Origin: Shigella phage SSG23
Direction: 5' to 3' (one strand)
Sequence record: PQ351811
Length of the DNA: 64,000 nucleotides
Shown here: positions 5,391 through 7,449 of the stretch, in pieces
How the letters are laid out: each line of letters begins with the position of its first letter
Numbering within the stretch: the stretch's first letter is position 1
Notes under the pieces: model-generated
What the model was told of the DNA's origin: nothing
Seen by the model: the letters and a program-made list of their open reading frames with translations, nothing else
Database searches by the model: none
Position numbers and translations under genes: made by a program

Positions 5391-5807
5391 ATGGAATTTA
5401 AAGCAATTCAAATCATGAAAGGTGAGCATAAAGGTACTATTATTGGTGGACACTTCGCGCCTATGATTCTGGTATCCGAACCGAAAGCACTGATCGGCGC
5501 TAAAGTAATTGTTAGTAAAACTTTCGCAGAAGACCATGTGATCACCGCAGAAGACGTCGATTCGCTGGAACTGCACACAACTAGCTTCCGTCCTGTTGTT
5601 GTAGATAATGGTGCTCCGGTTGTCGAAGGTGGTCAACACCTAAATGTTAACGTATTGTTACGAGAAATGTTGCTGGACGCGGTTGAACATCCTGAGAAGT
5701 ACCCGCAGCTTACAATTCGCGTTTCTGGTTACGCAGTGCGCTTCAATAGTCTGACTCCAGACCAGCAGCGTGACGTGATCGCGCGTACCTTTACCGAATC
5801 TCTCTAA
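5391..5807 (+). CDS. grcA: autonomous glycyl radical cofactor GrcA/YfiD-like protein
   Basis: C-terminus [49 protein letters not shown] with glycyl-radical motif RVSGYAVRF; SD AGAGGTG. Confidence 0.85.
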
Positions 5808-5817
5808 TTTTTCATCA

Positions 5818-5846
5818 AGCCAATCCGAAAAGGGTTGGCTTTTTCT
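5818..5846 (+). terminator. intrinsic terminator
   Basis: AGCCAATCC-GAAAA-GGGTTGGCT stem-loop followed by TTTTTC. Confidence 0.6.
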
Positions 5847-5893
5847 TTATAGTGTGATACGATGCAATCTCTTAATCAACTGAGGGTTTAATT

Positions 5894-6592
5894 ATGCATA
5901 CAATGGTTAAAATGGTCTTTGGATCTCACTTATACGGCCTTGATACTGAAAATTCCGATAAAGATTATCGTGGTATCTTTGTTCCAACTGCGAAAGAAAT
6001 TATCTTAGGATCGATGAAAGAACACTATGACCAAAGCACTAGCGGTCAAGGTATCAAGAACACCAAAGACGATATTGATGTTAATATGTTCAGTCTAAAA
6101 AGGTTTATCAACCTGGCATGTAAAGGTGATATTGGCGCTATTGACATTGTGCACGCGCCTAGTAACATGTTGATTGAATCCTCCAGAGAATGGGAATACA
6201 TCCGAACACATCGCGATAAATTCTATCATGTTGGTATGTGGGGTTGTTCTGGCTATCTCAAAAAGCAGGTAGCCAAATCTGAAAAGTATTTCAGTAACTG
6301 GAAAGATCTTTCTCATGCTCTGCGTGTTGGTTATCAGCTACTTGAAATCTATCAGACAGGTGATCTACAATTCCCACTCGCTCGACGTTCTTCTATTTTA
6401 GCGTGTAAGTTAGGAGAAAGAACCTTTGATAATGTGCGGGAAGAATTGAAAGATCTCTACGAACGTGTTAAACTCGCGCGTGAAGAGGCAAAGAAAAACG
6501 GGATGCCAGAAGAACCAGATGTTGACTTTTGGAAAGATTTATTAGAATATATTCATCTGACCGTTGTTCTTGAACACTATACCCGTGGTTAG
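5894..6592 (+). CDS. minimal nucleotidyltransferase (pol-beta superfamily fold)
   Basis: N-terminal FGSHLYGLDTENSDKDYRGIF matches hG[GS]x(9-13)DxD NTase motif; downstream DIDV acidic residue. Confidence 0.7.
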   Translation: MHTMVKMVFGSHLYGLDTENSDKDYRGIFVPTAKEIILGSMKEHYDQSTSGQGIKNTKDDIDVNMFSLKRFINLACKGDIGAIDIVHAPSNMLIESSREWEYIRTHRDKFYHVGMWGCSGYLKKQVAKSEKYFSNWKDLSHALRVGYQLLEIYQTGDLQFPLARRSSILACKLGERTFDNVREELKDLYERVKLAREEAKKNGMPEEPDVDFWKDLLEYIHLTVVLEHYTRG

Positions 6593-6613: not shown

Positions 6614-6808
6614 ATGCAAGTTTATACCAATAGCAATAAAGGACAAGATATTACGCCCGGAAAGATGTATGATTTTACCCCGGCACGAGACGACGAAAAT
6701 CCACCGACAATCGGTTACATCAAAGATGATATAGGTTATCGTATTACGATACTTCTTGATGGTGGATGTTCTCATCTTCGCGGTGATAAATGGGAGTTAG
6801 TACCATGA
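6614..6808 (+). CDS. small protein, tandem paralog 1
   Basis: Track ORF; shares GK(M/L)Y.FTP...GYIKDD.GY motif with next ORF. Confidence 0.5.
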   Translation: MQVYTNSNKGQDITPGKMYDFTPARDDENPPTIGYIKDDIGYRITILLDGGCSHLRGDKWELVP

Positions 6809-7050
6809 TGTATGTTATGACACCTTATAGTAGTAGATCTTACATCACCCCAAATAAACTGTATAAGTTTACGCCAGATGAAAGAATGTCTACCTACGGT
6901 TACATCAAAGATGATAAAGGATACGAACTTTTTATTTCTCTGAAAAGTTGTGCATACCTTGATGACCGTCCGTGGACACTGATCGAAAAACCAAAACAAC
7001 CTGAGAATAAAGGTCTTTGGAATGTGCTAAAAAAATTCTTGAAAAAGTAG
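6805..7050 (+). CDS. small protein, tandem paralog 2
   Basis: Track ORF 6790..7050, ATG 6805 after GGGAG SD; paralog of 6614 ORF. Confidence 0.5.
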   Translation: MMYVMTPYSSRSYITPNKLYKFTPDERMSTYGYIKDDKGYELFISLKSCAYLDDRPWTLIEKPKQPENKGLWNVLKKFLKK

Positions 7051-7110: not shown

Positions 7111-7449
7111 ATGAGTGTTAAAGAAGTGTTTGTTTATACCGACTATGACGGGTGCGCCTATATCACCGCCGGAAAACTTTACCGATGTGAAATTATTCAT
7201 GGTACATTAGGTCGAATTATGTGCGATCCGGTTACAAAATTGTGGAAAAGCAATCCTAGTGAGCGAGAAACTCTTATTAACCTAGATCCAGACGGTTGTT
7301 CACATTTGGACTATAGAAAATGGCATATCGTGACACATGATGCTTATGGTATTCATCTTGCTACTAAAGAATTAACTATAGAGAAATTCAAGTTTAAAGA
7401 AATCCCGTTTGTATACTGGCTTCGCAATTTGTTCAAGAAAGGAGAATAA
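7111..7449 (+). CDS. small protein, tandem paralog 3
   Basis: Track ORF after promoter; GKLY....DPDGCSHLDYRKW resembles paralogs 1 and 2. Confidence 0.55.
   Translation: MSVKEVFVYTDYDGCAYITAGKLYRCEIIHGTLGRIMCDPVTKLWKSNPSERETLINLDPDGCSHLDYRKWHIVTHDAYGIHLATKELTIEKFKFKEIPFVYWLRNLFKKGE

Follow-up and report, generated by a model that had tools for sequence, protein, structure and literature searches.

A compact RlaP/NrdC.11-like nucleotidyltransferase of Shigella phage SSG23 and its possible part in the repair of broken RNA ends

The nucleotidyltransferase gene and its annotation

The subject of this report is a nucleotidyltransferase (NTase) gene of Shigella phage SSG23 (PQ351811), found in a stretch of 64,000 nucleotides that was analysed as a whole and is called here the window. 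The gene is a 232-aa open reading frame (ORF) at 5894..6592 on the + strand with an ATG start, and its translation opens MHTMVKMVFGSHLYGLDTENSDKDYRGIF; its designation as the coding sequence (CDS) of an RlaP-family NTase takes together the ORF and translation, the matches to PF10127 and PHROG 388, its identity to XHY53319.1, and the ratio of non-synonymous to synonymous substitution rates (dN/dS). A Shine-Dalgarno-like GAGGG can be read 7 nt before the ATG (5882..5886, +), and the terminator scan placed a terminator-like hairpin of 10 pairs followed by a T-run (5817..5841, +) between the NTase gene and the vs.6-like gene that precedes it, at a place matching a terminator annotated upstream of the NTase gene in phage G2494 (MK327935). 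The promoter scan gave no sigma-70-like site scoring at least 9/12 between this hairpin and the ATG of the NTase gene. A weak TTGGCT-N17-TACGAT with an upstream TG, seen by eye before the gene, fell below the threshold of the scan and was not relied on.

At 100% identity the window matches Shigella phage SFHK24 (PQ351812.1), a T4 relative of the RB49 group (Straboviridae, Krischvirus), and 57 other Krischvirus genomes are 94-97% identical to the window region. The SFHK24 counterpart of the protein, XHY53319.1, is 100% identical and already carries the name “nucleotidyltransferase” in GenBank. By tblastn, homologues of the gene occur in 1,583 phage records, mostly of T4-like phages and at about 44% identity, among them the genes named nrdC.11 in RB43 and JS98, and the homologue is single-copy per genome, the SFHK24-type genome included. 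A preliminary description of this DNA had presented the gene as a stand-alone orphan, and this has to be abandoned given that it is the only T4 NrdC.11 homologue of its genome and is already annotated; NrdC.11 itself was identified as a COG3541 nucleotidyltransferase in 2006 (PMC1524935). We also observed that many phage records of GenBank and UniRef wrongly call the NrdC.11 homologue “thioredoxin”, “glutaredoxin” or “HNH homing endonuclease”; these names were likely propagated from adjacent genes or taken over from the name nrdC.

Family membership and catalytic motifs

The protein matches Pfam PF10127 (RlaP) with 52.7 bits against a gathering cut-off of 23 (E=6e-14) and PHROG 388, “nucleotidyltransferase”, with E=3e-79, and because of these two scores the motif match is beyond what chance would give. 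The PF10127 alignment is colinear, with residues 7-191 lying on model positions 24-198 of 249, and a close relative (P0002) spans model positions 23-229. Identity to NrdC.11 of T6, RB27, RB43 and JS98 is about 44%. Judged from these sequence comparisons, the gene almost certainly encodes an RlaP/T4 NrdC.11-family nucleotidyltransferase and is the Krischvirus counterpart of T4 NrdC.11. The NCBIfam search of the protein returned no family, PADLOC gave only a spurious CARF/HEPN match (E 0.03), and Pfam gave no match to ANT, KNTase_C, MNT or PF01743 (PolyA_pol), the last being the head domain that class II CCA-adding enzymes and poly(A) polymerases combine with an RNA-binding body.

The preliminary description had recognised a Pol-beta signature of the G[GS]-x10-DxD type in this 232-aa ORF, followed by a third acidic residue in the string DIDV, and both observations stand with the support of PF10127 and PHROG 388. 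The motifs run in the order G10-S11, ten residues, D22-K-D24, and later D60-I-D62-V. By alignments and the AlphaFold2 (AF2) model described below, the hG[GS] motif G10-S11 (5921..5926, +) would form the turn from strand 1 into a helix; D22-K-D24 (5957..5965, +), at the start of strand 2, would provide two metal-binding carboxylates, a role predicted from the alignments; and D60-I-D62 (6071..6079, +), at the start of the strand of residues 62-67, would be the region of the third carboxylate. Across 45 NrdC.11-like proteins, G10, S11, D22, D24, D60, D62, D84, K137, H141 and R144 are invariant, and when the alignment was widened with a canonical bacterial RlaP (272 bits to PF10127) and with members from Bacillus, Mycobacterium and Microbacterium phages, G10, S11, D22, D24, D60, K137 and R144 were still invariant. 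D60 is thus constant in all alignments, while the D62 position is D or E in distant family members. The aspartates lie, by alignment and model, where the catalytic residues of a Pol-beta enzyme are expected, the PDB set that was searched being one without an RlaP structure, and to that extent the refuting condition named in the preliminary description, misaligned catalytic aspartates, did not arise; the catalytic pair of HalB, judged from the title of PDB entry 9dbi, is D21/D23 and compares with D22/D24 here. An Rx4H string at R107-H112 was considered as a HEPN RNase motif and rejected, given that it has no conservation in the homologues.

Predicted structure and fold relatives

An AF2 model built from a 45-sequence alignment is confident throughout (predicted local distance difference test, pLDDT, 92.4; predicted template modelling score, pTM, 0.88) and has two domains. 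The N-terminal one, residues ~1-110 (5894..6223, +), is predicted to be a Pol-beta NTase domain with strands at residues 2-9, 24-30, 44-48, 62-67 and 93-96, whose fold matches HalB, ANT(4') and LinB. The C-terminal one, residues ~116-230 (6239..6583, +), is modelled as a helical domain that carries the family-invariant K137, H141 and R144 and ends in a long helix predicted with high confidence at residues 210-230. In the structure of the Pseudomonas enzyme PfRlaP, the helical and NTase domains form a cleft and the last helix packs back on the NTase domain.

The search for the closest family, which the preliminary description had proposed as a check, led by sequence to PF10127 and PHROG 388 and by fold to ANT(4') and HalB. 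In Foldseek against the PDB, the top match was the kanamycin NTase ANT(4') (E 4e-5), with template modelling (TM) scores of 0.25-0.42 at about 10% identity for the antibiotic NTases, and Hailong HalB matched with E ~1e-4, TM up to 0.49 and 13% identity. LinB, AAD(9) and Tam41 were the next matches, with AadA also listed; the MNT-HEPN complex 7ae9 was a weak partial fold match (E 0.1), and the cGAS structures reached only a probability of ~0.2 and TM 0.2. The C-terminal helical domain resembles, again by Foldseek, the HEPN-like C-terminal domains of kanamycin NTase and HalB, and in BFVD many phage “nucleotidyltransferases” match at TM ~0.8. Sequence searches of the PDB with the single protein, two family profiles and the canonical RlaP found nothing relevant in a searched set that holds no RlaP structure. 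According to the model, this is an NTase domain joined to a helical domain of the HEPN-like class, and the term “minimal” NTase used in the preliminary description does not fit a two-domain protein.

A short form without the insert of T4-type NrdC.11

The T4 and Krischvirus proteins share about 44% identity on both sides of a gap, the N-terminal NTase motifs, and a helical C-terminal domain with WKxLSHALRxGYQ, and both genes (COG3541 / PHROG 388) are single-copy and lie in the early region of a T4-like phage. They differ in length, 232 against about 336 aa, given that the Krischvirus protein is without some 100 residues of the T4-type protein between K128 and N135. The junction, residues 128-135 (6275..6298, +), was placed by alignments, Pfam colinearity and the AF2 model of the long form as the site of the ~100-aa alpha/beta insert of T4-type NrdC.11. 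In that long-form model (pLDDT 87), the insert is predicted as a separate alpha/beta module at residues ~131-240, composed of a helix, two strands, a helix, three strands and a helix. PF10127 aligns colinearly with the short forms and, in T6 NrdC.11, breaks off at model position 142. Since the insert is absent and PF10127 is colinear, the short protein corresponds to the canonical two-domain RlaP core.

How common this architecture is was surveyed in the 150 best representatives at 50%-identity clustering. Five of these are shorter than 260 aa with a match in a single stretch, namely one 94-aa fragment and four short forms of 231-258 aa; the others have at least 270 aa, mostly 300-360, and nearly all match in two stretches. 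The short form described here is also without the linker motifs KYGxKGSRL (KYGVKGSRL in T4 NrdC.11) and YGERAR that flank the insert and are retained by nearly all T4-type proteins. Remnants of the first motif of the insert persist in other short forms, as KYGIKGSKL in P0153 and KYGLK in P0232, and from these sequences we infer independent deletions of a dispensable insert module among the short forms.

The gene is under strong purifying selection. Compared with phage G2494, it shows 18 synonymous and 4 non-synonymous differences, with a dN/dS of 0.053. Furthermore, a divergent Krischvirus-like metagenomic contig carries a 234-aa version with 56% identity in the same place, in the order M15 endolysin, 160-aa ORF, glycyl-radical gene, HNH insertion, NTase and small paralogues.

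Gene neighbourhood and genome context

Directly upstream of the NTase gene lies a vs.6-like gene (5391-5807, +) for an autonomous glycyl-radical protein of the GrcA/YfiD-like kind (PF01228, E 1.6e-16). This small protein is distinct from the full-length anaerobic ribonucleotide reductase of the phage. Downstream follow three tandem small paralogues of phrog_6261 / phrog_15978 (6614-6808; 6790-7050, annotated from 6805; and 7111-7449; all +) with conserved K, Y, C, L and W positions and a GC[AS]HL-like motif, confined by tblastn to 58 Krischvirus genomes and present in two copies also behind the NTase gene of the divergent metagenomic contig. When these three small ORFs were tested as partners of the NTase, no informative family was found and no functional link can be claimed.

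Beyond the paralogues come regB, with the NTase gene 0.86 kb upstream of it on the same strand, an SLT transglycosylase, a CDS named “valyl tRNA synthetase modifier” (vs) by annotation only and without a Pfam match, and, 2.3 kb downstream of the NTase gene, a Macro-domain protein (PF01661; 8932-9387, +) annotated as “phosphatase”. The latter could process ADP-ribose derivatives arising from RNA repair or counter ADP-ribosylating defences. The synteny differs from that of the T4-type phages, given that here the gene stands between the vs.6-like gene and regB, whereas the T6 gene lies between a mobD-region gene and nrdC.10.

No HEPN, cyclase, CCA-type or HalA-like gene adjoins the NTase gene. 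The preliminary description was therefore right that the immediate surroundings offer no HEPN, cyclase or CCA-type partner, but the gene is not partnerless genome-wide: the genome encodes two partners usual for the family, the RNA ligase Rnl1 (PF09511 and PF20819) and Pnkp (kinase and HAD phosphatase), at record positions 129,789-132,651, about 88 kb away. In addition, 3.5 kb upstream of this full-length Pnkp the genome encodes a stand-alone 158-aa protein (PQ351812.1 127793-128269) that has the Pnkp HAD phosphatase domain alone (PF25109, E 1.6e-13) and may be a second 3'-end-healing enzyme. There are no tRNA genes in the phage genome and, because of this, damaged host tRNAs are not replaceable by the phage.

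Two further ligase candidates were discarded. The CDS at PQ351812.1 33769-34233, which lies about 1.1 kb ahead of the window and is named “RNA ligase” in GenBank, proved to encode Acb1, an anti-CBASS phosphodiesterase (PF23474, E 1.5e-51). A candidate Rnl2 beside the gene 24 homologue matched no RNA-ligase family, its only match being a marginal one to Alanine_zipper that stayed under the cut-off. The Acb1 misannotation could mislead searches for RNA-repair partners.

Co-distribution and relatives in other lineages

Counted as phages per genus, the RlaP and Rnl1 homologues occur in nearly equal numbers: 607 and 637 in Escherichia, 285 and 287 in Klebsiella, 82 and 82 in Shigella, and 69 and 69 in Acinetobacter. 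Outside the phages, a long-form NrdC.11-like gene abuts a CCA-adding enzyme gene (the neighbour matches PF01743) in seven loci of Campylobacterota. RtcB is also adjacent in three of the seven (L048:464-4305, L050:4559-8600 and L061:4560-8146), and the other four have the CCA-enzyme linkage alone. The apparent operons, in the order CCA enzyme (PolyA_pol and HD), RlaP and RtcB, come from Nitratifractor, Sulfurimonas and metagenome-assembled genomes (MAGs) of Campylobacteraceae. In Microbacterium phage A3Wally, the homologue is followed by genes annotated, and only annotated, as “RNA ligase” and metallophosphoesterases. The short-form homologues of Bacillaceae have no conserved repair neighbours, and for this reason the support from gene context is lineage-dependent; the contexts in phages Bcp1 and Itos were uninformative.

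In a deltaproteobacterial MAG (L015:6001-7727), a canonical RlaP (PF10127, 272 bits) comes immediately after a long NTase of the NrdC.11-like kind, so that two divergent paralogues of the family lie side by side. Phage RlaP homologues also recur near ribonucleotide reductase (RNR) or glutaredoxin genes, as in the nrdC region of T4 and T6, beside RNR in Bcp1, RNR/NrdI in A3Wally and NrdH in Itos, and this proximity may only reflect clustering in the early region.

RNA-end repair and the alternative readings

The proteins of PF10127 were named RlaP by Burroughs and Aravind for their linkage to RNA ligases, with the prediction, as relayed by later papers, that RlaP restores nucleotides lost from cleaved RNAs (via PMC7824862, 10.64898/2025.12.29.696909). 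In jumbo phages, the distribution of RlaP mirrors that of RNA ligase (PMC7824862), and RNA-ligase gene linkage is reported for “some” family members (10.64898/2025.12.29.696909). More recently, Carruthers et al. 2025 described in a December preprint that PfRlaP and PaRlaP of Pseudomonas add one or two nucleoside monophosphates (NMPs) or deoxynucleoside monophosphates (dNMPs) to the 3'-OH of RNA, that their preferred substrate is the 5' half of a cleaved-tRNA mimic and their preferred metal Mn2+, that they label neither DNA nor protein, E. coli proteins included, and that a tRNA with one nucleotide missing from its anticodon loop regains aminoacylation in part through the Pseudomonas RlaPs (10.64898/2025.12.29.696909). 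T4 NrdC.11 is assigned there to the RlaP family, in cluster 5, with “unknown function” (10.64898/2025.12.29.696909). RloC excises the wobble nucleotide and was proposed in 2008 to defeat the Pnk/Rnl1 repair of T4 in this way (PMC2610378). The phage protein resembles the Pseudomonas RlaP (PF10127 cluster 1a) in overall size, in the colinear layout of NTase and helical domains, in the three-carboxylate site and in K137/R144; the Pseudomonas genes stand in RtcB-RlaP-RtcA operons, in contrast to the phage gene, which has no ligase operon and whose ligase is the 5'-phosphate ligase Rnl1, not RtcB.

We suggest that the phage NTase would bind the 3'-OH end of an RNA in the cleft between its NTase and helical domains and would extend it by one or two untemplated nucleotides, with D22, D24 and D60/D62 holding two metal ions that are probably Mn2+. 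Pnkp would heal the ends and Rnl1 would seal them, both being encoded elsewhere in the phage genome. The substrates would be host tRNAs cut and trimmed by anticodon nucleases of the RloC kind, and a fraction of these could be restored as an accessory counter-defence function. The computed basis of this proposal comprises the family membership, the intact motifs, the two-domain fold, the purifying selection and a genome that also encodes Rnl1 and Pnkp, whereas what this particular protein acts on, what it makes and what it does in infection we infer by analogy with the characterised relatives. On that analogy, an RNA 3'-end nucleotidyltransferase activity is likely; that an active RlaP-family NTase aids the repair of broken RNA ends alongside Pnkp and Rnl1 is the reading we moderately favour; and a specific tRNA-repair role in vivo is put forward more tentatively, as a serious possibility that falls somewhat short of an even chance.

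Several points weigh against this proposal. RNA-ligase and RNA-repair genes are not among the immediate neighbours of the NTase gene, and rnlA/pseT, at their distance of about 88 kb, lie outside the window and are unlinked to it. The co-occurrence of RlaP and Rnl1 may merely mean that both are near-core genes in Straboviridae. The characterised RlaP enzymes are from Pseudomonas, with T4 NrdC.11 in a different cluster (10.64898/2025.12.29.696909), and identity of the phage protein to the canonical RlaP is about 17%. A short form without the insert and the linker motifs could also handle its substrate differently. Moreover, untemplated addition gives the right nucleotide only sometimes, a limitation raised by the preprint too (10.64898/2025.12.29.696909), and a modified wobble base is not restorable by it. 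Finally, T4 can do without nrdC.11-mobD.3 under laboratory conditions (PMC9825161), which fits an accessory role and proves nothing on which role it is.

The nearest alternative keeps the RNA 3'-end activity and changes its use, such that the enzyme would rebuild the 3'-CCA of tRNAs or other RNA ends trimmed by host toxins, or would tail the fragments of phage or host mRNA that RegB makes and Pnkp processes, to steer their decay. The abutting CCA-adding enzyme genes in Campylobacterota and the position of regB 0.86 kb downstream on the same strand speak for it, together with the fact that the characterised RlaPs also label rRNA-sized and full-length tRNA-sized species with little NTP specificity (10.64898/2025.12.29.696909). 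We nevertheless consider it unlikely: the regB linkage is not kept in T4-type phages, where nrdC.11 lies in the nrdC-mobD region, the one or two nucleotides added by RlaP would make a poor decay tail, and the characterised enzymes favoured the anticodon-side end of the cleaved-tRNA mimic over the acceptor 3' end. An entirely different fate, that of a decaying or non-catalytic NrdC.11 remnant inactivated by the ~100-aa internal deletion, could be read from the loss of the insert and its flanking motifs, which about 95% of the close relatives have kept. A remnant would hardly combine a dN/dS of 0.053 across Krischvirus with all the catalytic residues, a short form at 56% identity with the same synteny in a divergent relative, colinearity with the canonical RlaP model, other short forms in separate lineages and an AF2 model confident throughout, and we regard it as extremely improbable.

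The remaining alternatives come from the fold relatives. The top Foldseek matches in the PDB, ANT(4') followed by LinB, AAD(9) and AadA, and weakly 7ae9, would agree with nucleotidylylation of a small molecule or a protein, in the manner of the aminoglycoside and lincosamide NTases or of an AMPylating MNT antitoxin, for example to inactivate a host toxin or metabolite. MNT antitoxins are small single-domain NTases of about 100-150 aa encoded beside a HEPN toxin gene. The phage protein, with 232 aa, two domains and no adjoining HEPN gene, is unlike them, and ANT(4') and its kin, whose substrates are small molecules, are related to it with TM ~0.4 at best (0.25-0.42) and about 10% identity, with no ANT, KNTase_C or MNT Pfam match; as the RlaPs also failed to label E. 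coli proteins, this reading is quite improbable. Very improbable, and slightly more so, is that the protein is a HalB-like template-independent polymerase whose short oligo(deoxy)nucleotides would act as a decoy to keep a Hailong-type HalA channel closed, or would otherwise block nucleotide-signal defence. Its sole support is the fold similarity together with the use of dATP by RlaPs. HalB (PDB 9dbh, 9dbi, 9dbj) is described in a review as a tetrameric, protein-primed poly-dA synthase; its likeness to the phage NTase, at 13% identity, is at the level of fold only, with no detectable sequence relationship and no match of the family profiles to 9dbh, and there is no adjoining HalA-like membrane gene and no real PADLOC match. 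Perhaps HalB is merely the nearest relative available, because the searched PDB set contains no PfRlaP structure. The RlaPs, for their part, depend on an RNA primer, add only one or two nucleotides and leave protein and DNA unlabelled.

From the list of roles offered in the preliminary description, tRNA repair is the one that the evidence favours, through the RlaP family, while protein modification and cyclic-nucleotide signalling found no support, with no real PADLOC match and a fold probability of only ~0.2 for cGAS-type enzymes; the CD-NTase/cGAS-like synthases have neither a Pfam nor a PADLOC match to this protein.

Significance

The idea that RlaP takes part in repair is already in the literature (Burroughs and Aravind; Carruthers et al. 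2025), and this gene adds little to it conceptually. What the compact phage RlaP of 232 aa does contribute is an indication that the ~100-aa insert of T4 NrdC.11 is dispensable, as well as a handy construct for testing the family's phage branch. Should the repair role hold, the T4-like phages would bring a third player to the classic tRNA-repair pathway of Pnk and Rnl1, one that would answer the nucleotide-excising anticodon nucleases of the RloC type.

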